Part shown: positions 5,250 to 55,200 of the stretch, one piece after another
How positions within the stretch are numbered: the first letter of the stretch is position 1
Layout of the letters: every line of letters starts with the position of its first letter
Source: Mobula hypostoma
Taxonomy: Eukaryota
Assembly: GCF_963921235.1 (NCBI RefSeq)
Contig: NC_086108.1
Span: 22,444,001-22,508,000 of the forward strand
Length of the DNA: 64,000 bases
Direction: 5' to 3'
The notes under the pieces: model-generated
Databases searched by the model: none
The model's input: the letters and a program-made list of their open reading frames with translations, nothing else
Told to the model about the DNA's origin: nothing
Position numbers and translations under genes: made by a program

Positions 5250-7244
5250 ACACAATGCCTTTGTCATGTTTGAGCAGAATAATCAAATTTTTCAGCTTGT
5301 AACAGAGCATGATAAAAAGTGATGGCCAGTTCACCTTGTACACCACCAGCTGCCTTATGTGGTATTTGATATCACGGTTTTGGATATAGTCTTGTGTGCC
5401 ATGTCATGTTGCTATTCCTGCTTATTACAATACACTTTGCCACCTTCAGGGAAGGCAAGAAAATTGTCATAGGCAGGCTACTGCCTTGTCTACTTTGCTT
5501 GTATTGCTGATTTCATGCAAATCCATTGCTCCTGGGTGATCTTAGGTTATTTTCTCAAATCTATTAGACAATAGACAATAGACAATAGGTGCAGGAGTAG
5601 GCCATTCGGCCCTTCGAGCCAGCACCGCTATTCACTGTGATCATGGCTGATCATCCACAATCAGTATCCAGTTCCTGCCTTATCCCCATAACCTTTGATT
5701 CCGCTATCTTTAAGAGCTCTATCCATCTCTTTCTTGAAAGCATCCAGAGACTTGGCCTCCACAGCCTTCTGGGGCAGAGCATTCCATATATCCACCACTC
5801 TCTGGGTGAAAAAGTTTCTCCTAAACTCCATTCTAAATGGCCTACCCCTTATTCTTAAACTCTGGCCTTTGGTTCTGGACTCACCCATCAGTGGGAACAT
5901 GCTTCCTGCCTCCAGCGTGTCCAATCCCTTAATAATCTTATATGTTTCAATAAGATCCCCTCTCAGCCTTCTAAATTCCAGAGTATACAAGCCCAGTCGC
6001 TCCAATCTTTTGACATATGACAGTCCCGCCATCCCGGGAATTAACCTTGTGAACCTACGCTGCACTCCCTCAATAGCAAGAATGTCCTTCCTCAAATTTG
6101 GAGACCAAAACTGCACATAGTACTCCGGGTCCCACCAGGGCCCTGTACAGCTGCAGAAGGACCTCTTTGCTCCTATACTCAATTCCCCTTATTATGAAGG
6201 CCAGCATGCCATTAGCTTTCTTCACTGCCTGCTGTACTTGCATGCTTGCTTTCAGTGACTGATGTACAAGAACACCTAGATCTCGTTGTACTTCCCCTTT
6301 TCCTAACTTGACTCCATTTATATAATAATCTGCCTTCCTGTTCTTGCCACCAAATTGGATAACCTCACATTTATCCACATTAAACTGCATCTGCCATGCA
6401 TTCGCCCACTCACCCAGCCTGTCCAAGTCACCCTGCATTCTCATAACATCCTCCTCACATTTCACACTGCCACCCAGCTTTGTGTCATCGGCAAATTTGC
6501 TAATGTTACTTTTAATTCCCTCATCTAAATCATTAATATGTATTGTAAACAGCTGCGGTCCCAGCACTGAACCCTGCGATACCCCACTGGTCACTGCCTG
6601 CCATTCCGAAAGGGACCCATTAATCGCTACTCTTTGTTTTCTGTCAGCCAGCCAATTTTCAATCCATGTCAGTACTCTGCCCCCAACACCATGTGCCCTA
6701 ATTTTGCCCACTAATCTCCTATGTGGGACTTTATCAAAGGCTTTCTGAAAGTCCAGGTACACTACATCCACTGGATCTCCCTTGTCCATTTTCATAGTTA
6801 CATCCTCAAAAAATTCCAGAAGATTAGTCAAGCACGATTTCCCCTTCGTAAATCCATGCTGACTCGGACCACTGCTATCCAGATGTATCGTAATTTCATC
6901 TTTTATAATTGACTCCAGCATCTTTCCCACCACTGACGTCAGGCTAACCGGTCTATAATTCCCTGTTTTCTCTCTTCCTCCCTTCTTGAAGAGAGGGATA
7001 ACATTAGCCACCCTCCAATCCACAGGAACTGATCCTGAATCTATAGAACATTGGAAAATGATTACCAATGCGTCCACGATTTCTAAAGCCACCTCCTTAA
7101 GTACCCTGGGATGCAGACCATCAGGTCCCGGGGACTTATCAGCCTTCAGACCCAACAGTCTATCCAATACCATTTTCTGCCTAATATAAATTTCCTTCAG
7201 TTCATCCATTACCCTAGGTCCTTTGGCCACCATTATATCTGGGA

Positions 7245-7337
7245 ACATACATCAAAGTTGCTGGTGAACGCAGCAGGCCAAGCAGCATCTATAGGAAGAG
7301 GCGCAGTCGACGTTTCAGGCCGAGACCCTTCGTCAGG
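7245..7337 (-). mobile_element. 93-bp Penelope-like 3' fragment (hammerhead core plus downstream tail)
   Basis: 13-bp TSD ATTATATCTGGGA at 7232-7244 and 7338-7350; matches the PLE tails at 16860-16960 and 37250-37345. Confidence 0.9.
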
Positions 7338-7338
7338 A
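7305..7338 (-). ncRNA. Minimal hammerhead ribozyme core (stem I truncated by the insertion edge)
   Basis: Minus strand: tc CTGACGA agggtctcggcct GAAAC GTC gact; core intact, only 2 bp of stem I remain. Confidence 0.7.
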
Positions 7339-8128
7339 TTATATCTGGGAGATTGTTTGTGTCTTCCCTAGTGAAGACAGATCCAAAGTACCTGTTCAAC
7401 TCGTCTGCCATTTCCTTGTTCCCCATAATAAATTCACCTGTTTCTGTCTTCGAGGGCCCAATTTTGGTCTTAACTATTTTTTTCCTTTTCACATACCTAA
7501 AGAAGCTTTTACAATCCTCCTTTATATTCTTGGCTAGTTTCCTTCGTACCTCATTTTTTCTCCGCGTATTGCCTTTTTAGTTACCTTCTGTTGCTCTTTA
7601 AAAGTTTCCCAATCCTCTGGCTTCCCACTCGTCTTCGCTATGTTATACTTCTCTTTTATTTTTATACTATCCATTACTTCCTTTGTCAGCCACGGCCTCC
7701 CCTTACTCCCCTTAGGATCTTTCTTCCTCTTTGGAATGAACTGATCTTGCACCTTCTGCGTTATTCCCAGAAACACTTGCCATTAGTGTATTTGATCTAA
7801 GTTGAAAATTGAACATTTTGAGGGTAAAGTCCATCTGACAGTGTTTGGCTTTTCTTATCCTTGTCAAACCCAGAGGGTGTTTATATCCTCATTTTATTTG
7901 TAGTAAAATGTGAGTTCTTAGTTTTCCTTTGACCAACTGTCAAAATAATTAAGTTGTTGGTGCTTCAAGATGAAACCCTACATTATTTTAATCTGAAATA
8001 TTGACAATTCCTGTCTTCCCACAGATGCTGCATGACTCAATGAGTTCTTCCAGCAAATAATTTGTTGCCACACATATCAAAGTTGCTGATGAACGCAGCA
8101 GCTATGCAGCGTCTCTAGGAAGAGGTAC

Positions 8129-8164
8129 AGTCGATGTTTCGGGCTGAGACCCTTCATCAGGACT
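8129..8164 (-). ncRNA. Minimal hammerhead ribozyme, variant (GUC changed to AUC)
   Basis: agtc CTGATGA agggtctcagccc GAAAC ATC gact. Confidence 0.6.
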
Positions 8165-9129
8165 AACTGAAAGAAGAGCTAGTAAGAGATTTGAAAGTGG
8201 GAGGGGGAGGGGGAGATCCGAAATTATAGGAGAAGATAGGAGGGGGAGGGATGGAGCCAAGAGCTGGACGGTTGATTGGCAAAAGGGATATGAGAGGATC
8301 ATGGGACAGGAGGCCTAGGGAGAAAGAAAAGGGGGAGGGGGGAAAACCCAGAGGATGAGCAAGGGGTATAGTGAGAGGGACAGAGGGAGAAAAGGGAGAG
8401 AGAGAAAAAGAATGTGTGTATATAAATAAATAACGGATAGGATACGAGGGGGAGGTGGGGCATTAGCGGAAGTTTGAGAAGTCAATGTTCATACCATCAG
8501 GTTGGAGGTTACCCAGACGGAATATAAGGTGTTGTTCCTCCAACCTAAGTGTGGCTTCATCTTTACAGTAGAGGAGGCCATGGATAGACATATCAGAATG
8601 GGAATGGGACTTGGAATTAAAATGTGCGGCCGGTGGGAGATCCTGCTTTCTCTGGCGGACAGAGCCGCACATTTTAATTCCATGTCCCATTCCCATTCTG
8701 ATATGTTTGTCCACGGCGTCCTCTAATGTAAAGATGAAGCCACACTCAGGTTGGAGGAACAACATCTTATATTCCGTCTGGGTAGCCTCCAACCTGATGG
8801 CATGAACATTGACTTCTCAAACTTCCGCTAATGCCCCACCTCCCCCTCGTACCCCATCCGTTATTTATTTATATACACACATTCTTTTTCTCTCTTTCCT
8901 TTTTCTCCCTCTGTCCCTCTCACTATACCCCTTTCCCATCCTCTGGGTTTTCTCCTCTCCCCCCTTTCTTTCTCCCTGGGCCTCCTGTCCCATGATCCTC
9001 TCATATCCCTTTTGCCAATCACCTGTCCAGCTCTTGGCTCCATCCCTCCCCCTCCGGTCTTCTCCTATCATTTTGGATCTCCCCCTCCCCCTCCCACTTT
9101 CAAATCTCTTACTAGCTCTTCTTTCTGTT

Positions 9130-9165
9130 AGTCCTGATGAAGGGCCTCGGCCCAAAACGTCGACT
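9130..9165 (+). ncRNA. Minimal hammerhead ribozyme, likely inactive (GAAA changed to AAAA)
   Basis: agtc CTGATGA agggcctcggccc AAAAC GTC gact. Confidence 0.6.
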
Positions 9166-9640
9166 GTACCTCTTCCTAGAGATGCTGCCTGGCCTACTAC
9201 GTTCACCAGCAACTTTGTTGTGTGTGGCTTGAATTTCCAGCATCTGCAGATTTCCTCGTGTTTGCGTTTTTAAATAATTTGTTGCCCCAGATTCCAACAG
9301 ATATAGTCTCTTGCCTCTCAGCAAGTATTTGTATTTCTTAAATGCCTTTTAAATTGGAAGGTATGCCAATCAAATTCACAGGGCCCTTACCAACAATGTT
9401 TGATAAATAGTACCAAGATATTAGGACAGGAACCAAAAGAAGGTGGGAGGAGAGGATTGGTGGGGATGGGGAAGCATCTTCAGAGGAAAGGCTAATAGCA
9501 CCAGCACTTGCCTTAGAGTTGACAGAGGTTGCAAGGTTGAAGGCTGTCCAGGAAGTTATTGAGGAAAGTAGTTTCGAGACATTGGAAAGCCATGCGATAA
9601 CACTGGGCTACAATCTTAGGGTTTAGGAGAGAGCCTACAG

Positions 9641-11370: not shown

Positions 11371-11664
11371 AAATCAAAGAAAACTGCAGACGCTGAAAAT
11401 CTAAAACAAAAACAGAACGTGCTGGAAACACTCAGCGGGGCAGGCTTCAGCTGTGGGAATAGCAAGAGTCGACGTTTCAGTTAAAAGACCCTCTGAGAGA
11501 CTGAAAAGGAGACGAGAAGCTGGTAAAGCTGCAGGGAGGGTGAGTGAGAGCATATGTCCTATTGTCTATGTCTGACTCTGTAACAGCTCCCATTCACTCA
11601 TTGACCAGATAACTTTGCTTATCCCCGTGGCCACCTTGGTTTTACACGATCCCACCCTCTACCC

Positions 11665-14979: not shown

Positions 14980-15770
14980 AGAAACACACAAAAATGCTGG
15001 CGGAACCTAGCAAGTCAGGCAGCATCTCTGGAAATGACTAAACAGTCGACGTTTCAGGTTGAGATCCTTCATCAGCACTGAGAAGGAAGGGGAGGACACT
15101 AGAATAAAAAGGTTGCGGGAGGGGAGAGGGGAAGGAGGCTAGCTGGAAAGTGAAAGGTGAAGCCAGGTGGGTGGGAAAGGTGAAAGGCTAGAGAAGAAGG
15201 ACTCTGATCGGAGAGGAGAGTGGACTGTGGGAGAAAAGCAAGGAGGAGGGGACCCAGGGGGAAGTGATAGGCAGGTGAGATGAGGTAGAGTGGGGAATAG
15301 TAGAAGATGAGGGGAAGGGGAGGAAAACAATTTTTTTTTACCCTGAAGGAGAAATTGATATTCATGCCACCAGGTTGGAGGCTACCCAGACGGAATATAA
15401 GGTGTTGCTCCTCCACTCCGCGGGTGGCCTTTTCTTGGCACAAGAGGAGGCCATGGACTGACACGTCGGAATGTGAATGGGAATTGGAATTAAAATGCTT
15501 AGCCACCAGGAAGTTACACTTGTGGCGGACGGAGCAGAGGTGCTCGATAAAGTGGTCCCCTAATCTATGACAAGCCTCACCAATGTAGAGGAGGCCGCAT
15601 CGGGAGCACTGGACACGATAGACGGCCCCAGCAGATTTGCAGGTGAAGTTTTGCCTCACATGAAAGAACTGTCTGGGGCCCTGAATGGAGGTGAGGGAGG
15701 AGGTGAATGGGCAGGTGTAACACATAGGCCACTTGCAGGGATAAGTGCTGGCAGGGAGATTAGAGGGAGA
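14980..15770 (-). mobile_element. Penelope-like element fragment (second, older subfamily): GIY-YIG domain plus tail
   Basis: ORF 15099..15725: CYTCP, AVYRVQCSRCGLLYIGE, EEQHLIFRLGSLQP. Confidence 0.85.
15044..15079 (-). ncRNA. Minimal hammerhead ribozyme (core intact, stem I mismatch)
   Basis: agtg CTGATGA aggatctcaacct GAAAC GTC gact. Confidence 0.65.
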
Positions 15771-16825: not shown

Positions 16826-17485
16826 AAACAACAGGAAATCTGCAGATGCTGGAATTTCAAGCAACACACATAAAAGTTGCTGGTGAACGCAGCAGGCCAG
16901 GCAGCATCTGTAGGAAGAGGTGCAGTCGACGTTTCAGGCCGACACCCTTCGTCAGGACTAACTGAAGGAAGAGTGAGTAAGAGATTTGAAAGTTGGAGGG
17001 GGAGGGGGAGATCCAAAATGATAGGAGAAGACAGGAGGGGGAGGGATAGAGCCAAGAGCTGGACAGGTGATTGGCAAAAGGGGATACGAGAGGATCATGG
17101 GACAGGAAGTCCGGGAAGAAAGACGGGGGGGGGGGGACCCAGAGGATGGGCAAGAGGTATATTCAGAGGGACAGAGGGAGAAAAAGGAGAGTGAGAGAAA
17201 GAATGTGTGCATAAAAATAAGTAACAGATGGGGTACGAGGGGGAGGTGGGGCCTTAGCGGAAGTTAGAGAAGTCGATGTTCATGCCATCAGGTTGGAGGC
17301 TACCCAGACGGAATATAAGGTGTTGTTCCTCCAACCTGAGTGTGGCTTCATCTTTACAGTAGAGGAGGCCGTGGATAGACATGTCAGAATGGGAATGGGA
17401 TGTGGAATTAAAATGTGTGGCCACTGGGAGATCCTGCTTTCTCTGGCGGACAGAGCGTAGATGTTCAGCAAAGGGGTCTCCCAGG
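16826..17485 (-). mobile_element. 5'-truncated Penelope-like element
   Basis: Nearly identical to 37244-37860; short duplication ATCCTT at 16820-16825 and 17486-17491. Confidence 0.88.
16924..16959 (-). ncRNA. Minimal type-I hammerhead ribozyme, best-preserved copy
   Basis: agtc CTGACGA agggtgtcggcct GAAAC GTC gact: stem I agtc/gact, stem II agg/cct, conserved CUGANGA and GAAA, palindromic ACGU in place of stem III, GUC cleavage triplet. Confidence 0.8.
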
Positions 17486-20082: not shown

Positions 20083-20110
20083 GTAGGGTGATGTTAACAA
20101 ATAGGTTCAC

Positions 20111-20258
20111 AAACAAGAGAAAATCTGCAGATGCTGGAAATCCAAAGCAACACACACAAAATGCCGGAAGAACTCAGCAGGTCAGGCAGCATACGAAAAA
20201 GAGTAAATAACCGACTTTTTGGGCTGAGACCCTTCATCAGGACGTTTTGTGTGTGTAT
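20111..20258 (-). mobile_element. 148-bp Penelope tail insertion with a decayed hammerhead and a short inverted stub
   Basis: 19-bp TSD TGTTAACAAATAGGTTCAC at 20092-20110 and 20259-20277. Confidence 0.8.
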
Positions 20259-32926: not shown

Positions 32927-33318
32927 GAAAGGAATGAAGAGTTGATGTTTTGGGCCAAGACCCTTCATATGGAAAGGAATAAAGGAATGATGTTTCAGGC
33001 CGAAATTTTTCAACAGTACTTATGAAGAGTCTCAGCCAGAACCATCGATTCTTTATTCCTCTCCACAGATGTTGCCTGACCTGCTGAATTCCTGTAGCAT
33101 TTTGTGTGTTTCTCTGGATTTCCAGCATCTGTAGAATCTCTTATGTTTGAGTTCCTCCAGCATCATCTTCTTTCATAAGTGATATGAGGGTGGGCTTTTA
33201 ATCTGTCTTGGTGGCTGCAAGATCAGATACATCACTATTGTGCATGAGGTGTTTGACAGTGTGTTGTCCTTAAGGCATTTATTTGACTTTGTTGGGTCTA
33301 TGCTTTAGATAATTTGTT

Positions 33319-34329: not shown

Positions 34330-34720
34330 TTGCTTCTCACCTCCCCCCTTCACCTTTTCCCACCCCCTTTTCTCTCCCTCACCTTATTTCCTTGCCCGCC
34401 CATCACCTCCCTCTGGTGCTCCTCCTGTCCCCACCCCTCCCAATTTTATTTCTTCCATGGCCTTCTGTCTCTTTCACCAATCAACTTCCCAGCTCTTTTC
34501 TATCCCTCCCCTTCCAAGCTTCACCTATCACCTGGAGTTTCCCTCTCCCTTCCCCCCCACCTTTTAAATCTACTCCTCAGCTTTATTTTCTCCAGCCCTG
34601 CTGAAGAGTCTGGGCCCGAAACGTTGACTGTACTCTTTTCCGTAGATGCTGCCTGGCCTGCTGAGTCCCTGCAGCATTTTGTGTGTGTTGCTCAGATTTC
34701 CAGCATCTGCAGATTTTCTC
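34330..34720 (+). mobile_element. Penelope-like 3' tail with a decayed hammerhead
   Basis: Pyrimidine-rich UTR, then CTGCTGAAGAGTCTGGGCCCGAAACGTTGACTG and GATGCTGCCTGGCCTGCTGAG. Confidence 0.7.
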
Positions 34721-37309
34721 TCTTTTTTTAAACTTAAAGTAAACATTTTTTTCACTGTCCCTGTTCTGATGAAAGGTCACCATCTAGAAACATCTGTTTC
34801 TCTTTTCGCAGATGCTGCCCAACACACTAAGTATTTGCAGTATTTTCTGTTTTGATTTTAGATTACTGGTGCCTACAATTTTTTTGATCTTCTAGTGCAG
34901 TTGAAGGCTCCAATAATCTGCACACCAACATACTCGGCAATCCATTTCAAAGAGATAATATTAACTTGATCAAGCCCAAGGAGCCAACTGCTGCATTGTT
35001 GACATGATTGACGTTATTTCCCCAGTAGCACCTACAATGTAGGTGATGACTGAAATTTCAAAGAAAAAGTCTTTTGGATGCTTCTGCCAACCAGCCAGTG
35101 GGGTTTAAAGAAGGGGTTTAAGTGTGTTTCCAAACAGTTGCCTTTAATGGAAATGCATCCTATGTATGATTTGGTAAATTATAATGCTGCATTGTCAGTG
35201 CTGTTGTCCAAAAGAATAATAACACAAGACAGTAATCCGAGCCCACCCTTTTATATGGAAGTGAAGGATCCCAAAACATTATTCTATGAGAACCCTGGGG
35301 CTATCCTTCAAACAGCGAATAGACTGGACATGTATTTATCTGTATTTTTTTAGTATTGCACTGAGTGAAAATGGCCTGTAGAATTTTTAATATTATGACA
35401 TTTCTTAAATTATCTTAGCCATTGTGGGAGCATCGTGTGAGTGGGCTAGTGGAGGAGCCTGAGGTCTAAGGGTTTGGCTCAAGAGGCTGCAGCAAGGAGG
35501 ACAGGTGAATGGCAAATAGAAGGGTAAGTTTTTTAATAGTAATTTAAAAGATACCAAATTATATCTAATTAAACAAAGCCAAGATGCAGGATCAGTTGAT
35601 GTGTTGTAGCTGCATGATGTGGGAGCAGGTGTACCCCATTGTGGTTCCTGGTGAGCATGTCTGCTGCATGTTTAGTGGCTTGAGGAACTCAGACTGGAAT
35701 CTGAGCTTTGAACTTTGTGATGCATCAGGGAGGGGAAGAGATACATGGACACTGTGTTTCAGGGAGCTGGGCAGTCACACCCATTAGATTAACTACTTTA
35801 AATTCGGTTTTCTGGCCCGGGATGTGAGGGTGTCACTGCGAGTGAGGCAGGTAAGGGGTTCCAACAGGTAGTGCTGGAGGAGCCTCAGCCCTTAAACTTG
35901 CCCGAAAGATCTGAGATTGTCACTCCCTGTGAGGGTAAGAGTGGGCTGTATGAAATAAGAGGAATTGAATTGTGACACCGTGATTCAGGGAGCTGTTCTA
36001 GAAGGGGAGAGAAGAGAAATGTAGTTGTAATCGGGGATAGTATAGTCAGGGGAATAGACACAATTCTTTTTTGCAGGGATTGAGAATCCTGAAGGCTGTG
36101 CTATTTGCCTGATGCCCATCCATCTGCATATTGAAAATGCTAGGACTATCACCTCAACTGACCTGCAGAGGAATTTAGAGTAGGAGGGGAAAGATCCAGT
36201 TGATCTGTCCATGTGGATAACAATGTAGAAAGCACAAGGCAAGAGATTCCGCTGAGGGAATTTGAGCAGCTAGGGATTAAATTAAGGTGCAGAATCAAAA
36301 AGAAAATAAGTTCTGGTTGGGAGCTCAATATCCAAGGATATACTTTGTATCAAAAGGACAGGTGGATAGGCAGAGGAAGTTGAGTGGCTCTGTTGGTAAA
36401 AAATGAAATCCTTAGAAAGAGATGACATGGGATCAGAAGGTGTAGAATCCTTGTGGGTAGCGTTAAGAAACTGAAGACTGATGAAAGTTATATGTGGGCC
36501 TCTGGACAATATCCAGGATGTGGTTTACAAATAACAATAGGAGATTAAAAAAAAAAGCATGTAAAATGGGCAATGTTATGATAGCCCTAGCATTTTCAAT
36601 ATGCAGATTGATTGGGAAAATCAAGTTGGTGCCAGATCTCAAGGGAAGAAATTTGTAGTATGCCTACAAGATGCTTTTTCGCACAGCTTGTGGTTGACCC
36701 CATTGGGGAAAAGCCAATTTTTGATTGTATGTTATGTAATGAACCAGATTTGATGAGGGAGTGGGTGTTTTAAACCAGATTTGATGAGGGAGCTTAAGAT
36801 AAAGGAAACCTTAGGAGACAGTGATCATAATATGATAGAAATTACCCTGCAGTTTGAGAGGGGGAAGCTAAAATCAGGCGTATTGGTATTACTGTTGAGT
36901 AAACCTAGCTACAGAGGCATGAGGGAGGAGCTGGCCAAGGTTGATTGGAAGAAGGCGCTAGCAGAGAAGATGGTAAAGCAGCAACAGCTGTAATTTCTGG
37001 GAGTAACTTGGAAGATGCTGGATTGATTAATTCTAAAGAAGAAGAAGCATTCTGAAGTGAATATACAGCAACTGAGACTGATAGAGAAGTCAAAGACAGC
37101 GTAGAAGTCCACACGGAAGGCAAAGCAGCATAAAAGCAAAAGTGGGGGTGTACAATCTAGCAAAATTAGTGGGAAGCTAGAGGATTGGTAAGTTTTTAAA
37201 CACCAACAGAAGGTAACTAAAAAGGCAATAAGGAGAGAAAAGACAGGCAACACACATCAAAGTTGCTGGTGAACGCAGCAGGCCAGGCAGCATCTGTAGG
37301 AAGAGGTGC

Positions 37310-37345
37310 AGTCGACGTTTCAGGCCGAGACCCTTTGTCAGGACT
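37310..37345 (-). ncRNA. Minimal hammerhead ribozyme, likely inactive (CUGACGA changed to CUGACAA)
   Basis: agtc CTGACAA agggtctcggcct GAAAC GTC gact. Confidence 0.6.
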
Positions 37346-37634
37346 AACTGAAGGAGGAGTGAGTAAGGGATTTGAAAGTTGGAGGGGGAGATCCAAAATG
37401 ATAGGAGAAGACAGGAGGGGGAGGGATAGAGCCAAGAGCTGGAGAGGTGATAGGCAAAAGGGGATACGAGAGGATCATGGGACAGGAGGTCCGGGAAGAA
37501 AGACAAGGGGGTGGGGAACCCAGAGGATGGGCAAGAGGTATTTTCAGAGGGACAGAGGGAGAAAAAGGAGAGTGAGAGAAAGAATGTGTGCATAAAAATG
37601 AGTAACAGATGGGGTACGAGGGGGAGGTGGGGCC

Positions 37635-40057
37635 TTAGCGGAAGTTAGAGAAGTCGATGTTCATGCCATCAGGTTGGAGGCTACCCAGACGGAATATAAG
37701 GTGTTGTTCCTCCAACCTGAGTGTGGCTTCATCTTCACAGTAGAGGAGGCCGTGGATAGACATGTCAGAATGGGAATGGGATGTGGAATTAAAATGTGTG
37801 GCCACTGGGAGATCCTGCTTTCTCTGGCGGACAGAGCATAGATGTTCAGCAAAGCGGTCTCCTGGTCTGCGTCGGGTCTCACCAATATATAAAAGGCCAC
37901 ATCGGGAGCACCGGACGCAGTATATCACCCCAGTCGACTCACAGGTGAAGTGTTGCCTCACCTGGAAGGACTGTTTGGGGCCCTGAATGGTGGTAAGGGA
38001 GGAAGTGTAAGGGCATGTGTAGCACTTGTTCTGCTTATACGGATAAGTGCCAGGAGGGAGATCAGTGGGGAGGGATGGGGGGGGCGAATGGACAAGGGAG
38101 TTGTGTAGGGAGCGATCCCTGTGGAATTGAGAGAGAGGCGGGGAGGGAAAGATGTGCTTAGTGGTGGGATCCCGTTGGAGGTGGCGGAAGTTACGGAGAA
38201 TAATATGTTGGACCCGGAGGCTGGTGGGGTGGTAGGTGAGGACTAGGGGAACCCTATTCCTAGTGGGGTGGCGGGAGGATGGAGTGAGAGCAGACGTACG
38301 TGAAATGGGGGAGATGCGTTTAAGAGCAGCGTTGATAGTGGAGGAAGGGAAGCCCCTTTCTTTAAAAAAGGAAAATACCTCCCTCGTCCTAGAATGAAAA
38401 GCCTCATGCTGAGAGCAGATGCGGCGGAGATGGAGGAATTGCGAGAAGGGGATGGCGTTTTTGCAAGAGACAGAGTGAGAAGAGGAATAGTCCAGATAGC
38501 TGTGAGAGTCAGTAGGCTTATAGTAGACATCAGTGGATAAGCTGTCTCCAGAGACAGAGACAGAAAGATCTAGAAAGGGGAGGGAGGTGTCAGAAATGGA
38601 CCAGGTAAACTTGAGGGCAGGGTGAAAGTTGGAGGCAAAGTTAATAAAGTCAACGAGTTCTGCATGCGTGCAGGAAGCAGCGCCAATGCAGTCGTCGATG
38701 TAGCGAAGGAAAAGTGGGGGACAGATACCAGAATAGGCACGGAACATAGATTGTTCCACAAACCCAACAAAAAGGCAGCATAGCTAGGACCCATACGGGT
38801 GCCCATAGCTACACCTTTAGTTTGGAGGAAGTGGGAGGAGCCAAAGGAGAAATTATTAAGAGTAAGGACTAATTCCGCTAGACGGAGCAGAGTGGTGGTA
38901 GAGGGGAACTGATTAGGTCTGTAATCCAAAAAGAAGCATAGAGCTTTGAGACCTTCCTGATGGGGGATAGAAGTATATAAGGACTGGACATCCATGGTGA
39001 AAATAAAGCGGTGGGGGCCAGGGAACTTAAAATCATCGAAAAGTTTAAGAGCGTGAGGAGTGTCACGAACATAGGTCGGAAGGGATTGAACAAGGGGTGA
39101 TAAAACAGTGTCGAGGTATGCAGAAACGAGTTCGGTGGAGCAGGAGCAAGCTGAGACAATAGGTCGGTCAGGACAGGCAGGTTTGTGGATCTTGGGTAGG
39201 AGGTAGAAACGGGAAGTGCGGGGTGTGGGAACTATAAGGTTGGTAGCAGTAGATGGGAGATCCCCTGAGCGGATAAAGTCGGTGATGGTGTGGGAGACAA
39301 TGGCCTGGTGCTCCCTAGTGGGGTCACGATCGAGGGGTAAATAAGAGGAGGTATCCGTGAGTTGTCGCTGTGCCTCGGCAAGGTAGAGGTCAGTACGCCA
39401 GACTACAATAGCACCCCCCTTATCGGCAGGTTTAATAATAAGGTTAGGATTAGTGCGGAGGGAGTGGAGAGCAGAGCGTTCCGAAGGAGTGAAGTTGGAA
39501 TGGGGAAAAGGTGCGGTGAAGTCGAGACGGTTGATGTCCCGTCGGCAGTTAGCAATAAAGAGATCCAGAGCAGGCAGAAGACCAGAGCGGGGTGTCCATG
39601 AAGAAGAGGAGGGTTGAAGACGGGAGAAGGGGTCATCGGTGGGGGTGGAAGAGTCCTTGCTGAAGAAGTAGGCTTGGAGACGGCGGAAGAAAAGTTCCGC
39701 ATCGTGGCGAACACAGAACTCGCTGGGGTGTGGGCGAAGAGGGACAAAGGTGAGGCCCTTACTGAGGACAGAGCGTTCTGCCTCCGACAGTTGAAGGTCG
39801 GAGGGGATGGTAAAGACCCGGCACGGATGAGAGCTGGGATCAGAGGGGGGAGGGGGGAGGCTGGGGGTGTCGGAGAGGGGAGGGTTGGGGTGAGAGGAAG
39901 ATGGAGGCTCTGAGGGCCCAGGAGCTGACGATGGGATCTGAAGGAGACGGGATTGCAGAGTATTGATGGGGGAAGGGGAGACGGGAGTCACAACAGCAGC
40001 ACTTGAAGACCCGGCCTGGAGTTCAAGGCTGGAGTTGCAGTTGGTGGTTGCGCAATC
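37635..40057 (-). pseudogene. PLE reverse transcriptase / GIY-YIG endonuclease, one frameshift near 38770
   Basis: LSKGLTFVP, IKPADKGGAIVV, FYLLPKIHK, TMDVQSLYTSIPH, GVAMGTRMGPSYA, FLRYIDD, Cys-rich linker (KCYTCP), VIYCVRCSRCGLLYIGET. Confidence 0.92.
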
Positions 40058-42147
40058 AAGGAGAGAAAAGATGTAATGTGCATGTAAGGTAGTCCAAACA
40101 GGGAAATCAAAATTTCTTTCAGATATATAAAGTGTAAAGAGGGACAAGAATGGACATTGGTCTGCAGGAAAAGGACACTGGAAAGGTAGTAATGGGGAGA
40201 AGAACTGAAAAATGGCGTATGAACTGAATAAGTATTTTATGTCAGTCTTCACGGTAGAACACACCAGGAGTATGCCAGACTTTTGAAAGTGTCTGGGGCC
40301 AGAAGTGATTGTAGTTGCTAAAGATGAGGAGAAGGTGCTTGGAGTCATCTGGACCAGGTGGACTAGACCCCAGGGTTCTGAAAGAGGTAGCTGAAGAAAC
40401 TGTGAAGTCATTGGTAATGATCTTTCAAGAATCACTAGACACTGAATGGTCCCGAGGACTGGAAGATTGCCAATGTCACTCCTCCCTTTAAGAAGAGAAG
40501 GAGGCAACAGACTGGAAATTATAGGTCAGTTAGTCTGACTTCAGTGGTTGGCACATGTTAATGTCCTTTATTAAGGATGAGATTTTGGGGTACTTGGACG
40601 CACATGATAAAATAGGCCAAAGTCATCATGGTTTCTTTAAGGGAAAATCATGCCTGACAAATCTGTTGGATCCATTGAGGAAATAACAGGCTGAATAGAC
40701 AGAGGAGAGCTAGTGGGTGTTGTTTACTTGGATTTTCAGAAGGCCCTTGACAAGTTGCTGGAGGCTGTTGAACATGATAAGAGCCCATGATATTACAGGA
40801 AAGGTACTAGCATGGACTGAAGATTGGATGACTGGCAGAAGGTGAAAATGGTAATAAAAGAGGCCTTTTCTGGTCGGCTGCTGGTGACTAGTGCTGTTCC
40901 GCAGGGGCAGTGCTGTGTCCACTACTTTCCACGACATGTGTGAATGATCCAGATGATGGAATTGATTGTTTCGTCGCCAAGTTTGCGGATAAGTGGAGGG
41001 GCAGGTAGTGTTGAGGAAGCAGGACCGCTGAAAGATTTGGACAGATTAGGAGAATGGGCAAAGAAGTGGCATATAGAGTATAGTGTAGGGAAGTTTATTG
41101 TTAAGCACTTTGATAGTAGGAATAGAGATGTAGACTATTTTCTAAATGGAAGCAAATTCCGAAACCAGAGGTGCAAAGGGACTTGGGAGTCCTCGTGTAC
41201 GATTCCCAAAAAGTTAAGTGCAGGTTGATTCAGTAACGATTAAATATTAGCTTTATTTGTCACATGTACATTGAAATATCAAAGCATACAGTGAAATGTG
41301 TCATTTGCATCAAAGACCAACACAGCCCAGGGATGTGCTGTAGCAGACTACAAGTGTCAAAGTAGCATACCTGCGCCTTAGTAAACCCAACCCTAGCCCA
41401 TAAGGTTTTGGATTGTGGGAGGAAACCGGAGCACCAGGAGGAAACCCATGCTGTCATGGGTAATGTACAAACACCTTAGAGACAATGGTGGGAACTGATC
41501 GCTGATCACCGGTACTGTAAAGAGTTGCGCTAAAGTTGTTTGGCGTTGCTGTCCAGGGTGTCAAAGGAGCCAGCGGTTGGGTCGGAGAAAGATGAGCCAG
41601 CGGTCGGGTCGGAGAAAGATAAGTCAGCGGATGGGTGGCGTCTGTGCTCGGTTGGGGGCTGCCCTCCAGTGTTCGACCGGTAGAATGACAGACTGAATTG
41701 CCAGGAGCTGTATCATCAGTTTGCATGTTGCTCAGGGTCTTGGACTATCTGTGTGTTTTTCTGTGTAACGATGTGTGTGTGTTTTTTCTCCGCTGTTTTG
41801 AATGGATGTTTTGCACCTTGGCCCCAGAGGAAAGTTGTCTCATTCAACTATATCCATATATGGTTTGAATGATAATTAAACTTGATTTGATTTGATAACC
41901 ACTATACTACCATGCGGTACTGTAAGGATGACAAATGCAATGTTAGCACTCATTTCAAGAGGACTCAAATATAAGAGCAAGGATGTAATTCTGAGGCTTT
42001 ATGAGGCATTGGTCCGACCATATTTAGAGTATTATGAACAGTTTTGGGCCCATTTTTAAGAAAGGATGTGCTGGCACTGGAGAAGGTCCAGAGAAGGTTT
42101 ATGAAATAGATCCTGGGAAAGAAAGGGTTCATGTAGAAGAAGCATTT

Positions 42148-47202: not shown

Positions 47203-47370
47203 TGGGGTGGCCAACCTTTTACATTCCATGCATCAATTTTTTTCACTCACGAGTTCAGATGCGCCATACAACTCTTGTACCCCCCCCATTCAATTCTTGT
47301 AAAAAGATGTTAATATAGAACTCGTGCATGAAAAAGTTGACACATGGAATGTAAAAGGTTGGCCACCCCG
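47203..47370. mobile_element. 168-bp hAT (Charlie-like) MITE, largely palindromic
   Basis: TIRs YGGGGTGGCCAACCTTTTACATTCCATG; 8-bp TSD ATCTAGGA at 47195-47202 and 47371-47378; sits in an older LINE 3' fragment (~46975-47500). Confidence 0.88.
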
Positions 47371-49193
47371 ATCTAGGACATGCCCTCTTCTCATTACTAC
47401 CATCAAGGAGGAGGTACAGGAGTCTGAACACCCACACCCAACATTTTAGGAACAATTTCTTTCCCTTTGCTATCAGATTTCTCAACAGTCCATCAACAAT
47501 TATACCAGCTAAGAAGAATAATGTGACCTACCTTAATGACTATCGCCCAGTAGCACTCACATCTACAGTGATGAAATGCTTTGAGAGGTTGGTCATGACC
47601 GGGCTGAACTCCTGCCTCAGCAAGGACCTGGACCCATTGCAATTTGCCTATCGCCACAAAAGGTCAACGGCAGATGCAATCTCAATGGCTCTTCACACGG
47701 CTTTAGACCACCTGGATGACACAAACACCTATGTCAGGATGCTGTTCATTGCCTATAGCTCAGCTTTTACTACCATCATTCCCACAATCCTGATTGAGAA
47801 GTTGCAGAACCTGGGCCTCTGTACCTCTCTCTGCAATTGGATCGTCAATTTCCTAACTGGAAGACCACAATCTGTGTGGATTGATAGTAACATCTCCTCC
47901 TCACTGACGATAAACACTGGTGCACCTCAGTGGTGTGTATTTAGCCCACTGCTCTACTCTCTATATACCCATGACTGTGTGGCTAGGCATAGCTCAAATA
48001 CTGTCTATAAATTTGCTGATGGTACAACCACTGTTGGTAGAATCTCAGATGATGATGAGAAGGCGTTTAGGAGCAAGATATGCCAACTAGTGGAGTGGTG
48101 TCACAGCAATAACATGGCACTCAATGTCAGTAAGATGAAAGAGCTGATTGTGGACTTTAGGAAGGGTAAGACGAAGGAACACATGCCAATCCTCATGGAA
48201 GGATCAGAAGTGGTGAGAGTGAGCAGTTTCAAGTTCCTGGGTGTCAAGATTTTTGAGGATCTAACCTGGTCCCAAAATATCAATGGAGCTATAAAGAAGG
48301 CAAGACAGCAGCTATACTTCCTTAGGAGTTTGAAGAGGTTTGGTACAGTCGAAGTCAGAAGTTTACATACACCTCAGCCAAATACAGATAAACTCAGTTT
48401 TTCACAATTCCTGACATTTAATCCTAGAAAGCACTCTCTGTCTTAGATCAATTAGGATCACTACTTTATTTTAAGAATGTGAAATGTCAGAATAATAGTA
48501 GAGAGAATGATTTATTTCAGCTTTTATTTCTTTCATCACTTTCCCAGTGGGTCAGAAGCTTACATACACTTTGTTAGTATTCGGTAGCATTGCCTTTAAA
48601 TTGTTTAACTTAGGTCAAATGTTTTGGTAGCCTTCCACAAGCTTTTCACAGTAAGTTGCTGGAATTTTGTTCCATCCTTCCAGACAGAACTGGTGTAACT
48701 GAGTCAGGTTTGTAGGCTTCCTTGCTTGCACATGCTTTTTCAGTTCTGCCCAGAAATTTTCTATTGGATTAAGATCAGGGCTTTGTGATGGCCACTGAAG
48801 TACCTTGACTTTGTTGTCCTTGAGCAATTTTGCCACAACTTTGGAGGTATGCTTGGGGTCATTGTCCATTTGGAAGACCCATTTGCGACCGAACTTTAAA
48901 TTCCTGGCTGATGTCTTGAGATGTTGCTTCAATATATCCACATAATTTTCCTTCCTCATGATGCCATCTATTTTGTGAACTGCACCAGTCCCTCCTGCAG
49001 CAAAGCACCCCCACAACATGATGCTGCCACTCCCATGCTTCATGGTTGGGATGGTGTTCTTCGGTTTGCAAGCCTCACCCTTTTTCCTCCAAACATAACG
49101 ATGGTCATTATGGCCAAACAGTTCAATTTTTGCAACACACACAAAATGCTGGTGGAACGCAGCAGGCCAGGCAGCATCTATAGGAGGAGGTAC

Positions 49194-49229
49194 AGTTGAC
49201 ATTTCAGGCCGAGACACTTTGTCAGGACT
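49194..49229 (-). ncRNA. Decayed hammerhead ribozyme
   Basis: agtc CTGACAA agtgtctcggcct GAAAT GTC aact. Confidence 0.5.
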
Positions 49230-51044
49230 AACTGGAAGAAGAGATAGTACAAGATTTGAAAGTGGGAGGGGGAGATCCGAAATGATAGGAGAAGACAGGA
49301 GGGGGAGGGAAGAGCTAAGAGCTGGAAAGTTGATTGGCAAAAGGGATACAAGGCTACAGAAGGGAAAGGATCATGGGATGGGAGGCCTAGGGCGATAAAA
49401 AGGGGGAGGGGAGCACCGGAAGGTGTAGTGAGAGGGATAGAGAGAAAGAGAGAGAGAGAGGGGAAAAACTATAAATAATAAATAAATAAGGGATGGGGTA
49501 AGAAGGGGAGGAGGGGCATTAACGGAAGATAGAGTAGTCAATGTTCATGCCATCAGGTTGGAGGCTACCCAGACGGAATATAAGGTGTTGTTCCTCCAAC
49601 CTGAGTGTGGCTTCATCTTGACAGTAGAGGAGACCGTGGATAGACATATCAGAATGGGAATGGGACGTGGAATTAAAATGTGTGGCCACTGGGAGATCCT
49701 GCTTCATCTGGCGGACAGAGCGCAGGTGTTCAGTGAAACGGTTTCCCAGTCTGCGTCGGGTCTCGCCAATATATAGAAGGCCACACCAGGAGCACCGGAC
49801 GCAGTATATCACCCCAGTCGACTCACAGATGAAGTGTCAAGTCAAGTCAAGTCACTTTTTATTGTCATTTCGACCATAAGTGCTGGTACAGTACACAGTA
49901 AAAACGAGACAACGTTTTTCAGGACCATGGTGCTCCATGAACAATACAAAAACTACACTGAACTACGTAAAACAACACAAAACCACACTAGACTACAGAC
50001 CTAACTAGAACTGCATAAAGTGCACAAAACAGTGCAGGCATTACAATAAACAATAAACAAGACAATTTGCACAGTAGAGGGCAGTGGGAAGAAACTGTTA
50101 CATAGTCTTCTCATGAGAGACCAAATGCTTTGGTGCCTTTTGCCGGGGTGGGGGGAGGGAAAGATGTGCTTGGCAGGGGGATCCCCTCCGCCACCTCCAA
50201 CGGGATCCTACCACCAAGCACATTTTTCCCTTCCTCCCCCCCCCGGCTTTCCACAGGGATCGCTCTCTACGCGACTCCCTTGTCCATTCGTCCCCTCCAT
50301 CCCTCCCCACCGATCTCCCTCCTGGCACTTAACCCTTGTAAGCGGAACAAGTGCTACACATGCCCTTACACTTCCTCCCTCACCACCATTCAGGGCCCCA
50401 GACAGTCCTTCCTGGTGTGGCGACACTTCACCTGTGAGTTGGCTGGTGTGATATACTGCGTCTGGTGCTCCCGGTGCGGCCTTCTATATATTGGCGAGAC
50501 CCGACACAGACTGAGAAACCGTTTCGCTGAACACCTACGCTCTGTCCGCCAGAGAAAGCATTATCTCCCAGTGGCCACACATTTTAATTCCACATCCCAT
50601 TCCCATTCTGATATGTCCATCCATGGCCTCCTCTACTGTCAAGATGAAGCCCAACTCAGGTTGGGGGAACAACACCTTATATTCTATCTGGGTAGCCTCC
50701 AACCTGATAGCATGAACATTGACTTCTCTAACTTCTGTTAATGCCCTTCCTCCCCTTCTTACCCCCCCTTTATTTATTTATTTATTTATAGTTTTTCCCC
50801 CTTTCTTTCTCTCTCTTGTCTCCCTCTGTCCCTCTCACTATATCTTCCTCTGGTGCTTACCTCCCCCTTTCATTCTCCCTAGGCCTCCCGTCCCATGATC
50901 CTCTCCCTTCTCCAGCCTTGTATCCCTTTTGCCAATCAACTTTATTTCTTAGCTCCATCCCTCCCCCTCCTGTCTTCTCCTATCATTTCGGATCTCCCCC
51001 TCCCCCTCCCACTTTCAAATCTCTTACTATCTTTTCTTTCAGTT

Positions 51045-51080
51045 AGTCCTGACGAAGGGTCTCAGCCCGAAACGTCTACT
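51045..51080 (+). ncRNA. Minimal hammerhead ribozyme (core intact, one stem I mismatch)
   Basis: agtc CTGACGA agggtctcagccc GAAAC GTC tact. Confidence 0.7.
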
Positions 51081-52293
51081 GTACCTCTTCCTATAGATGC
51101 TGCCTGGCCTGCTGCATTCCACCAGCATTCTGTGTGTGTTGCTTGAATTTCCAGCATCTGCAGATTTCCTCGTGCTTGTGAGTTCAATTTTTGCTTCATC
51201 AGAGCAGAGGACATTTCTCCAGAAAGTAAGATCTTTGTCCCCATGTTCACTTGCAAACCGTAGTCTGGTTTTTTTATGTCGGTTTTGGAGCAGTGGCTTC
51301 CTCCTTGCTGAGCGGCCTTTCAGGTTATGTTGATATAGGACTCGTTTTACTGTGGATATAGATACTTGTCTGCCTGTTTCCTCCAGCATCTTCACAAGAT
51401 CCTTTGCTGTTTTCTGGGATTAATTTGCACTTTTTGCACCAAAGTACGTTCATCTCTAGACAGAATGCATCTTCTTCCTGAGCGGTATGATGGCTGCGTG
51501 GTCCCATGGTGTTTATACTTGCGTGGTATTGTTTGTACAGATGAACGTGGTACCTTCAGGCGTTTGGAAATTGCTCCCAAGGATGAACGAGACTTGACAT
51601 CATTTTCTGACCTCAATCCAATAGAAAATTTCTGGGCAGAACTGGAAAAGCATGTGCGAGCAAGGAGGCCTACAAATTTGACTCAGTTACACCAGTTCTG
51701 TCTGGAGGAATGAAACAAAATTCCAGCAACTTATTGTGAGAAGCTTGTGGAAGGCTACCCAAAATGTTTGACCCAAGTTAAACAATTTAAAGGCAATGGT
51801 ACCAAATACTAACAAAGTGTATGTAAACATCTGACCCACTGGGAAAGTGATGAAAGAAATAAAAGCTGAAATAAATCATTCTCTCTAATATTATTCTGAC
51901 ATTTCACATTCTTAAAATAGTGATCCTAACTGACCTAAGACAGGGAATGTTTTCTAGGATTAAATGTCAGGAATTGTGAAAAACTGAGTTTAAATGTATT
52001 TGGCTGAGGTGTATGTAAACTTCTGACTTCAACTGTATGTCAACAAATACACTCCAAAACTTCTGTAGTTGTACCGTGGAGAGCATTCTGACAGGCTGCA
52101 TCACTGTCTGGTATGAGGGGGGTGGGGCTACTGCACAGGACCGAAAGAAGCTGCAGATTTAGTTGGCTGAATCTTAGCCTACAAAGTACCCAGGACATCT
52201 TCAAAGAGTGATGTCTCAGAAAGGCAGCGTCCATTACTGAAGACCCCCAGCACCCAGGGCATGCCCTTTTCTCACTGTTACCATCAGGTAGGA

Positions 52294-55200
52294 AACATAG
52301 AAACATAGAAACATAGAAAATAGGTGCAGGAGTAGGCCATTCGGCCCTTCGAGCCTGCACCGCCATTTATTATGATCATGGCTGATCATCCAACTCAGAA
52401 CCCAGCCTTCCCTCCATACCCCGTGACCCCTGTAGCCACAAGGGCCATATCTAACTTCCTTTTAAACATAGCTAATGAACTGGCCTCAACAGTTTGCTGT
52501 GGCAGAGAATTCCACAGATTCACCACTCTCTGTGTGAAGAAGTTTTTCCTAACCTCGGTCCTAAAAGGCTTCCCCTCTATCCTCAAACTGTGACCCCTCG
52601 TTCTAGACCTCCCCAACATCGGGAACAATCTTCCCGCATCTAGCCTGTCCAATCCCTTTAGGATCTTATACGTTTCAATCAGATCCCCCCTCAATCTTCT
52701 AAATTCCAACGAGTACAAGCCCAGTTCATCCAGTCTTTCTTCATATGAAAGACCTGCCATCCCAGGAATCAATCTGGTGAACCTTCTTTGTACTCCCTCT
52801 ATGGCAAGGATGTCTTTCCTCAGATTAGGGGACCAAAACTGCACACAATACTCCAGGTGTGGTCTCACCAAGGCCTTGTACAACTGCAGTAGTACCTCCC
52901 TGCTCCTGTACTCGAATCCTCTCGCTATAAATGCCAGCATACCGTTCGCCTTTTTCACCGCCTGCTGTACCTGCATGCCCACTTTCAATGACTGGTGTAT
53001 AATGACACCCAGGTCTCGTTGCACCTCCCCTTTTCCTAATCGGCCACCATTCAGATAATAATCTGTTTTCCTATTTTTGCCACCAAAGTGGATAACTTCA
53101 CATTTATCCACATTAAATTGCATCTGCCATGAGTTTGCCCACTCACCCAACCTATCCAAGTCACCCTGCATCCTCTTAGCATCCTCCTCACTGCTAACAC
53201 TGCCACCCAGCTTCGTGTCATCCGCAAACTTGGAGATGCTGCATTTAATTCCCTCATCCAAGTCATTAATATATATTGTAAACAACTGGGGTCCCAGCAC
53301 TGAGCCTTGCGGTACCCCACTAGTCACCGCCTGCCATTCTGAAAAGGTCCCGTTTATTCCCACTCTTTGCTTCCTGTCTGCTAACCAATTCTCCACCCAC
53401 ACCAATACCTTACCCCCAATACCATGTGCTTTAAGTTTGCACACTAATCTCCTGTGTGGGACCTTGTCAAAAGCCTTTTGAAAATCCAAATATACCACAT
53501 CCACTGGTTCTCCCCTATCCACTCTACTAGTTACATCCTCAAAAAATTCTATGAGATTCGTCAGACATGATTTTCCTTTCACAAATCCATGCTGACTTTG
53601 TCCGATCATTTCACCGCTTTCCAAATGTGCTGTTATCACATCCTTGATAACTGACTCCAGCAGTTTCCCCACCACCGACGTTAGGCTAACCGGCCTATAA
53701 TTCCCCGGTTTCTCTCTCCCTCCTTTTTTAAAAAGTGGGGTTACATTAGCCACCCTCCAATCCTCAGGAACTAGTCCAGAATCTAACGAGTTTTGAAAAA
53801 TTATCACTAATGCATCCACTATTTCTTGGGCCACTTCCTTAAGCACTCTGGGATGCAGACCATCTGGCCCTGGGGATTTATCTGCCTTCAATCCCTTCAA
53901 TTTACCTAACACCACTTCCCTACTAACATGTATTTCGCTCAGTTCCTCCATCTCACTGGACCCTCTGTCCCTTACTATTTCTGGAAGATTATTTATGTCC
54001 TCCTTAGTGAAGACAGAACCAAAGTAATTATTCAATTGGTCTGCCATGTCCTTGCTCCCCATAATCAATTCACCTGTTTCTGTTTGCAGGGGACCTACAT
54101 TTGTCTTTATCAGTCTTTTCCTTTTTACATATCTATAAAAGCTTTTACAGTCCGTTTTTATGTTCTCTGCCAGTTTTCTCTCATAATCTTTTTTCCCCTT
54201 CCTAATTAAGCCCTTTGTCCTCCTCTGCTGAACTCTGAATTTCTCCCAGTCCTCAGGTGAGCCACTTTCTCTGGCTAATTTGTATGCTACTTCTTTGGAA
54301 TTGATACTATCCCTAATTTCTCTTGTCAGCCACGGGTGCACTACCTTCCTTGATTTATTCTTTTGCCAAACTGGGATGAACAATTGTTGTAGTTCATCCA
54401 TGCAACCTTTAAATGCCTGCCATTGCATATCCACCGTCAATCCTTGAAGTGTCATTTGCCAGTCTATCTTAGCTAATTCATGTCTCATACCTTCAAAGTT
54501 ACCCCTCTTTAAGTTCAGAACCTTTGTTTCTGAATTAACTACGTCACTCTCCATGTTAATGAAGAATTCCACCATATTATGGTCACTCTTACCCAAGGGG
54601 CCTCTCACGACAAGATCGCTAATTAACCCTTCCTCATTGCTCAAAACCCAGTCCAGAATAGCCTGCTCTCTAGTCGGTTCCTCAACATGTTGGTTCAAAA
54701 AACCATCCCGCATACATTCCAAGAAATCCTCTTCCTCAGCACCTTTACCAATTTGGTTCACCCAGTCTACATGTAGATTGAAGTCACCCATTATAACTGC
54801 TGTTCCTTTATTGCACACATTTCTAATTTCCTGTTTAATACCATCTCCGACCTCACTACTACTGTTAGGTGGCCTGTACACAACTCCCAGCAGCGTCTTC
54901 TGCCCCTTAGTGTTACGCAGCTCTACCCATATCGATTCCACATCTTCCCGGCTTATGTCCTTCCTTTCTATTGCGTTAATCTCTTTTTTAACCAGCAACG
55001 CCACCCCACCTCCCCTTCCTTCGTGTCTATCCCTCCTGAATATTGAATATCCCTGAACGTTGAGCTCCCATCCCTGGTCACCCTGGAGCCATGTCTCTGT
55101 GATCCCAACTATATCATAATCATTAATAACAATCTGCACTTTCAATTCATCCACCTTATTACGAATGCTCCTTGCATTGACACATAAAGCCTTCAGGCGC

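Follow-up and report, generated by a model that had tools for sequence, protein, structure and literature searches.

A minimal hammerhead motif carried by one abundant Penelope-like element lineage of Mobula hypostoma, and what the ends of its copies suggest about its role

The 36-nt motif at 16924-16959 of the window (the whole 64-kb stretch of Mobula hypostoma DNA that was analysed) is, judged by its sequence, almost certainly the minimal hammerhead of Penelope-like elements (PLEs). The motif itself is of an already known kind, of which this lineage is a further member. The first-pass annotation had read its copies as a dispersed family of ribozymes; they are instead passengers of one very abundant endonuclease-positive PLE lineage and form no family of their own. 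As to what the motif does, we lean slightly, at a little better than an even chance, to the explanation that the hammerhead cuts full-element RNA and that a unit circle is then copied over more than one round, with lone copies inactive.

Motif anatomy and copies in the window

Positions with a plus or minus sign are counted from C3 of the core (0), and the predicted cut lies between +27 and +28. The flagged motif and its host copy are laid out as follows.

16826-17484, minus strand: host copy, a solitary 5'-truncated PLE spanning -529 to +129 from C3
16924-16959, minus strand: minimal type-I hammerhead, the flagged 36-nt motif
16959-16956, minus strand: stem I, 5' strand
16955-16949, minus strand: CUGANGA, followed by one extra A
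16947-16936, minus strand: stem II, with G.U as the closing pair 10.1/11.1
16935-16932, minus strand: GAAA
16932-16929, minus strand: 4-nt palindrome
between 16928 and 16927, minus strand: predicted cut
16927-16924, minus strand: stem I, 3' strand

Helix I closes the motif, which makes it type I, and has four pairs (92.5% of cells paired in 20 sequences). Helix II also has four pairs (96.3% paired in 20 sequences), the extra A before 10.1 is invariant in the alignment, and helix III is a 4-nt palindrome without a loop. The catalytic core of CUGANGA, GAAA and UH is complete at 16924, at 7305 and in the family majority, and the 10.1/11.1 pair is G-C in older families and in 25% of young copies and G.U in the rest, including 16924. 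This anatomy matches the published motif and bears out the earlier identification as a minimal type-I hammerhead of PLE terminal repeats with stem III reduced to a 4-nt palindrome. The host copy of 659 bp holds the end of the GIY-YIG domain, the 3' UTR, the hammerhead and a long 3' tail, is 96% identical to a full-length copy, and has no partner motif on the same strand within about 9 kb. Upstream of the motif, 16962-16980 (minus strand) is a pyrimidine tract ending in AG; near it one subfamily carries what we take to be a branch-point-like word, and the words at -10 to 0 of the motif are presumably initiator-like. No spliced copy, with its joint at the acceptor-like site that precedes helix I, turned up among same-strand jumps. 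An intron that ends at helix I is on record from Drosophila virilis (PMC4209133).

All eight motif copies that the first-pass annotation placed in the window are present, on the minus strand at 7305, 8129, 15044, 16924, 37310 and 49194 and on the plus strand at 9130 and 51045. The four decayed traces that it gave near 11470, 20215, 32945 and 34600 are also present, along with two more at 33019-33046 and 34766-34794. Its sketch of the motif was too short in the spacer: the stretch from CUGANGA to GAAA is 13 nt, and a pattern with a spacer of 4-12 nt gave zero matches. With the 13-nt spacer and at most one mismatch allowed, the pattern matches nine times in the window, whereas 100 second-order Markov shuffles of the window average 0.1 matches and never exceed one. 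Of the searches by hammerhead model, as had been proposed, one of the window against Rfam returned no hammerhead at the gathering score or at E up to 10; a strict descriptor (the core, stems I and II of at least three pairs each, and palindromic 15.2/16.2) finds the 16924 copy, which alone passes in the window. The same descriptor has 125 matches in 1.11 Mb of DNA, from loci partly chosen by motif so that the count is not a density, and none in reversed DNA. The motif had also been placed about 260-330 nt past the GIY-YIG stop, and this holds: leaving out the 7305 copy, which has no part of the open reading frame, a stop was found in six of the seven copies tested, with 293-307 nt from stop to C3. 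The other copies in the window are the following.

7244-7340, minus strand: PLE copy of about 95 bp that begins 2 nt before C3 and hence has a shortened stem I; target-site duplication of 12-13 bp
8067-9264, both strands: head-to-head inverted PLE insertion with a 15-bp target-site duplication; arm 8067-8665 (minus) has a short 3' end and motif 8129-8164 with a broken palindrome, arm 8664-9264 (plus) a long tail and motif 9130-9165 with G12 changed to A
11467-11503, minus strand: heavily decayed motif trace
14989-15767, minus strand: older-family PLE remnant, motif 15044-15079 with the first stem I pair broken
20110-20243, minus strand: decayed old-family copy, starting 3 nt before C3
32935-33149, both strands: decayed old-family copies in inverted arrangement, traces near 32945 (minus), at 32989-33016 (minus) and at 33019-33046 (plus)
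34477-34719, plus strand: older-family copy, motif near 34594-34629 with the A6C core variant
37244-40058, minus strand: longest PLE copy in the window, with reverse transcriptase (RT) and GIY-YIG, frameshifted and 5'-truncated; motif 37310-37345 with G8 changed to A
49132-49836, minus strand: PLE 3' fragment, motif 49194-49229 with G8 changed to A and further changes
50187-51178, plus strand: PLE 3' fragment with GIY-YIG, motif 51045-51080 with G1.1 changed to U, which breaks the first stem I pair

A fold-back where the 50187-51178 copy has its 5' end has left an inverted repeat at 50141-50248, which yields chance matches to microRNA families. Other mobile elements occupy 52395-55415, 6070-7251, 47355-48446 and 48615-49370, and comprise a 1,006-codon frame (endonuclease and RT), two further RT frames and a DDE_3 transposase fragment.

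Host element and abundance

The 3.48-Gb genome holds 45,139 exact matches to the 34-place motif and 90,862 matches to a 23-nt word from the tail, with zero matches in the reversed control for either. Among 20 loci chosen for long open frames, nine have motifs on both sides of the frame, spaced about 3,503-3,516 nt apart. A frame of 1,043 codons matches RVT_1 (E=4e-05) and GIY-YIG (E=0.004), both weakly and under Pfam's cut-off, and its translation contains a C-x4-C-x2-C linker; a CX2-5CxxC zinc-finger linker before the endonuclease is a mark of Neptune and Nematis (PMC8557442). The lineage probably belongs to Neptune rather than Nematis because, in the available text of a preprint, only Neptune and Poseidon were found in vertebrates (bioRxiv 10.64898/2026.07.22.740005). 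Among named proteins, those of a bamboo shark come closest (68-72% identity).

Conservation and natural core variants

Dispersed copies decay neutrally: the CpG sites in their motif lose 3-8%, like the outside CpG at +66/+67. Between families the picture is one of a kept motif in changing surroundings. In a selection made by the tail only (128 rows outside the young family), the majority motif departs from the young one at N7 and 11.1 and nowhere else, and the flanks on both sides differ between the older families and the young family. Among subfamilies of the young lineage, polymorphism affects one of the 37 sites in the motif and about 21 of the 209 in its flanks, a weak difference (P about 0.1). 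In 20 natural copies 94.4% of the 160 stem cells are paired, and no pair has changed on both sides in the 20 sequences, whose nearly invariant stems give such a test no power. A relaxed core scan was too noisy to delimit families.

Two natural variants depart from the canonical ribozyme. In the young lineage about 75% of copies have U at 11.1 (C in 21,430 of 84,904), a change that costs stem II about 1.6 kcal/mol of stability in the folding model. Mere CpG decay is rejected as the main cause of this U, as most of the least decayed copies carry it. The other variant is an older family with C at position 6 (A6C), found in seven of 13 typed copies; its 34-place pattern has 217 exact matches in the genome, and it also occurs at 34594-34629 of the window and at loci L268-L287. 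In other hammerheads A6C lowers activity in magnesium by orders of magnitude (PMC7151607; also PMC3088659). Both the U11.1 and the A6C lineages spread despite these changes to core or stem.

Predicted folding and candidates for activity

For the monomer at 16924 the predicted structure is a rod (-5 to +32; -12.6 kcal/mol, z -1.35), which is not the active fold, and the hammerhead arrangement of a dimer scores -8.3 with U11.1 and -13.5 with C11.1, against -31.7 and -35.3 for the best co-fold, in a model that ignores tertiary contacts. These predicted folds fit the low activity and the need for help that have been published (PMC4209133, PMC11167929). Solitary copies, 16924 included, are likely inactive or inert under our preferred explanation and also under the structural and template-jumping alternatives discussed below. 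The proposal that 16924 is the best candidate for activity stands as far as preservation goes, its sequence being the best kept of the eight, and is weak as to activity, given a solitary, truncated copy with a predicted monomer rod. From the sequences, the better candidates would be full elements with two motifs 3.5 kb apart.

Ends of copies at the motif edge

The sample for copy ends comprises 95 of the first 100 places of the tail word in the genome. Among the 70 copies that reach C3, 18 have their 5' end at -15 to 0, a rate of 0.016 per nt as compared with about 0.001 upstream of -50, and three of 84 end at +28 to +30. The 7244-7340 copy is a case of this 5'-edge hotspot inside the window, and in the contiguous 264 kb around the window three of 14 copies end at the edge. 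Anchor counts over the genome, which carry a few percent of noise from the choice of words, fall from 84,904 copies reaching +6 to 57,974 reaching -17 and 50,022 reaching -34, with 40,883 at -69 and 42,043 at -110; about 30% of genome copies end at the 5' edge of the motif. At the other end, copies fall into two 3' classes, at about +77 to +102 and at +119 to +130. Both classes peak at the same 5' place, and a hotspot set at a fixed distance from the priming site is rejected. Generic cDNA hairpins are not supported as the cause either, as hairpin strength did not predict 5' ends elsewhere (P=0.38). In a first sample the hotspot seemed specific to U11.1 (34/94 against 1/22), but copies picked for C11.1 showed it in 5/28 (Fisher P=0.30). 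Between +6 and -17, 21% of C11.1 copies are lost as compared with 35% of the rest; the hotspot is thus weaker in C11.1 copies and not absent from them, and age confounds the comparison. In the literature, largely openly accessible papers, we found no report of a pile-up of 5' ends at a hammerhead edge.

Ends at the predicted cut site

The junction at +28, with three mismatches upstream, is found in 576 copies where 109-206 are expected at a flat rate, a comparison without a same-method control elsewhere. This excess is no clear signal of cleavage: among 30 cut-site loci sampled, 21 are fold-backs, usually with 3-4 nt of microhomology that can explain such joints, and the remainder, apart from about four solitary copies, are small deletions, duplications or mutated copies. 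The solitary ones, with unrelated DNA upstream and no clear duplication, amount to no excess over the flat rate. At three fold-back loci (L293, L294 and L295), one arm ends at -3, the other begins exactly at the cut site, and an identical extra A sits at the joint between them. Cut-site ends are enriched for the older haplotype (72 of the 100 listed against 43 of 100 in the general sample, counted by eye), and C11.1 is present in 9 of 19 typed partners of cut-site copies against 25% genome-wide (P=0.03). This gives a hint, without a matched control, that the canonical C11.1 variant was cut more often.

Copies longer than one unit

From the 150 best protein matches we took 100 long copies, 20 chosen for long frames and 80 in list order. 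The upstream repeat is reached by 29 of these and its C3 by 20. Two of the 20 stop there, at -2 and -4, and the other 18 continue for 74-1,014 nt with an end rate near background and without a fixed boundary; none of the 100 has its 5' end at +28 of the upstream repeat. In the 18 continuing copies the two repeats of one element share 55 non-majority variants, where 16.6 are expected if they were independent, and one-sided variants number 79, mostly singletons. It follows from the shared variants and the over-length copies that reverse transcription passes the cut site and takes up the same letters of the template a second time. Letters copied twice fit a circular template, which explains them simply; template jumping or a read-through RNA can do so as well.

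Some individual copies have features of their own. At L132:4238-4778 (G000:C1 near 1,876,750) a non-native junction, from +284 to about -58, is read twice; the repeat is a 342-nt unit with a hammerhead, a pattern compatible with either a small circular template or a source that was itself duplicated, and splice signals are absent at the junction. The upstream repeat of L262 has the letters of another subfamily at +33 to +55 only, which suggests a switch between two RNA templates. The 5' ends of long copies (L188-L267) also cluster at about +809 (6/100) and at +644 to +654 (6/100) from the upstream C3, and these clusters may reflect pausing, or alignments that break off in C-rich tracts.

Head-to-head pairs

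Of the 94 copies selected by the tail, 44 belong to head-to-head pairs. The 43 pairs listed, some of them chosen for their paired look, each combine a short with a long 3' end. Over 42 pairs, the two arms carry different letters at 43 of 348 subfamily sites, whereas random pairs do so at 43%. The divergence is greater in long pairs than in short ones (15/76 against 7/129 subfamily sites, counted by hand), which suggests two templates in the long pairs. A simple fold-back of one cDNA is rejected as a general origin of the inverted arms, either of which can be the longer.

Explanations for the role of the motif

Under the explanation we prefer, two motifs 3.5 kb apart in the transcript of a full element would cut as a dimer, probably with the help of the element's protein. 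Cleavage would release an RNA of unit length, likely closed into a circle, and this circle would be copied for more than one round. Short copies, whose ends lie 0-15 nt before C3, would come from uncut linear RNA with its start at that place and with internal priming at +93 or +130. We give the RNA 5' end an even chance of being the cause of the hotspot, and rate a cut-and-circle role, with dimer cleavage, ligation and a circular template, just below even. A fuller version, in which the genome would record the working of the ribozyme in vivo, cut and ligated 3.5-kb circles would be the templates for full elements and would regenerate pseudo-LTRs, uncut RNAs with their start at the ribozyme's 5' edge would give the tens of thousands of copies of 100-140 bp, and the change from C11.1 to U would have shifted the ends of the young lineage from the cut site to the 5' edge, seems to us unlikely. 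The preferred explanation draws on the anatomy, the elements with two motifs, the conservation in older families, the over-length copies, the shared variants, L132, the richness of cut-site ends in C11.1 and the cleavage, with protein help, of a related hammerhead from Anolis (PMC11167929). Against it count the lack of compensatory change and of a solitary cut-site excess and the spread of U11.1 and A6C lineages regardless. Insertion in vitro in Anolis did not need cleavage and no RNA-seq read ended at the cut site (PMC11167929), and eight of nine dimers of Xenopus retrozymes failed to cleave (bioRxiv 10.64898/2026.07.22.740005). The data do not establish the earlier claim that the lineage uses self-cleaving RNA, with zero compensatory pairs in 20 sequences, no excess of solitary cut-site ends and an older A6C family that spread.

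An alternative that we regard as somewhat unlikely is that the hammerhead is real, that its cleavage lies off the main path and that uncut linear RNA is the template. Reverse transcription would start in the 5' repeat, reach the RNA 5' end before the motif and usually jump to the 3' repeat, in a manner that resembles retroviral strong-stop transfer, and short copies would be failed jumps. The hotspot at -15 to 0 (18/70, and the genome-wide fall from 84,904 to 57,974) speaks for this, as do the second-pass ends at -2 and -4 (2/20; P=0.04 against background), the missing solitary excess at the cut site, the success of the A6C and U11.1 lineages and the Anolis in vitro result (PMC11167929). However, of the 20 long copies that come to the supposed RNA end again, 18 run past it, so that the second jump would have to succeed nearly every time, and the conservation of catalytic letters across families is left unexplained. 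Another alternative is a motif kept mainly as a structural or pairing signal, whose palindrome would join two RNAs or bind a protein so that both DNA ends are primed, with the fold or the bound protein stalling RT at the 5' edge. The head-to-head pairs (44 of 94 copies; one short and one long end in 43 of 43), the long arms that often differ at subfamily sites and so point to two templates, the predicted monomer rod from -5 to +32, whose base coincides with the hotspot, and the fact that A6C leaves pairing intact all suit such a signal. We nevertheless think it improbable: cDNA hairpin strength is not predictive elsewhere (P=0.38) and the hairpin at -5 ranks no higher than the top 20%, a smaller share of second-pass copies ends in the hotspot (2/20 against about 30%; P about 0.02-0.04 binomial, 0.08 Fisher), and Naiad elements insert inverted without canonical hammerheads (PMC8557442). 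That the core match is an accident multiplied with the transposon is hardly credible. Few source lineages stand behind all copies, so copy number gives no independent support, and there is no Rfam match and no covariation; yet it agrees with the published PLE motif in every core position, both stems, the extra nucleotide, the palindrome and its place in the element, and it is kept while its flanks diverge.

Comparison with known systems

Cervera and De la Peña (2014) described minimal hammerheads in the pseudo-LTRs of metazoan PLEs, reported them in Neptune, Poseidon and Xena elements of fishes and proposed a circle model (PMC4209133). The motif here resembles theirs in its type-I order, the lack of a helix III beyond the palindrome, the extra nucleotide between 9 and 10.1, a short helix I, its presence in both terminal repeats and its occurrence mostly in dispersed truncated elements. 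It differs in that helix II has 3-4 pairs in the Mobula hypostoma lineage as compared with 7-8 in Schistosoma, and in that the dominant lineage, nearly uniform in sequence, has G.U and not G-C at 10.1/11.1. Exact copies number at least 45,139 in Mobula hypostoma, as compared with about 4,000 in coelacanth and 9,000 in Xenopus (PMC4209133), and the searchable supplement of that paper names no cartilaginous fish. Dimer cleavage was described by Lünse et al., as covered by the review PMC6765202.

Poseidon_Ac (Frangieh et al. 2024, PMC11167929) is similar in having a hammerhead followed by two RT start sites that define an optional tail, in the extension of both DNA strands and in copies that read through the cut site. 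It belongs to a different clade, and the Mobula hypostoma element has a zinc-finger linker. In Mobula hypostoma the likely start codon comes about 165 nt downstream of C3, whereas in Poseidon_Ac it lies in stem II, and the pile-up of 5' ends at the motif edge does not appear in the available text of the Poseidon_Ac account (PMC11167929). Inverted PLE insertions with a one-sided tail of 30-40 bp have been described by Craig et al. (2021, PMC8557442) and Arkhipova et al. (2013, PMC3846280), and ours share with these the head-to-head arms, a tail on one end, target-site duplications and partial tandems. Beyond those accounts, the pairs are counted in Mobula hypostoma, where about half of the copies are in pairs and 43 of 43 pairs combine a short with a long end.

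Non-LTR retrozymes, also reported in one cartilaginous fish, likewise have type-I hammerheads derived from PLE terminal repeats (bioRxiv 10.64898/2026.07.22.740005). However, these are tandem arrays of a fixed unit, whereas the Mobula hypostoma copies are single, inverted or partial tandem with variable 5' ends; identity with a retrozyme is rejected, as the copies examined contain no tandem array of a fixed hammerhead unit. The A6C hammerhead of phage Bcep176 (PMC3088659, PMC7151607) has the same core change as the older family, but it is a single phage example, whereas the PLE family of Mobula hypostoma has the change fixed, with at least 217 well-kept copies.

The role of hammerheads in PLEs and the regeneration of pseudo-LTRs are stated as open questions in PMC8557442 and PMC2377424. 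In a young, nearly uniform lineage of more than 90,000 copies the ends of copies can be counted, and three natural ribozyme variants (G10.1-C11.1, G10.1.U11.1 and A6C) together with a sharp hotspot at the 5' edge make the question of PLE replication testable. The motif itself is an expected one; the interest lies in the statistics of copy ends and in the natural core variants.
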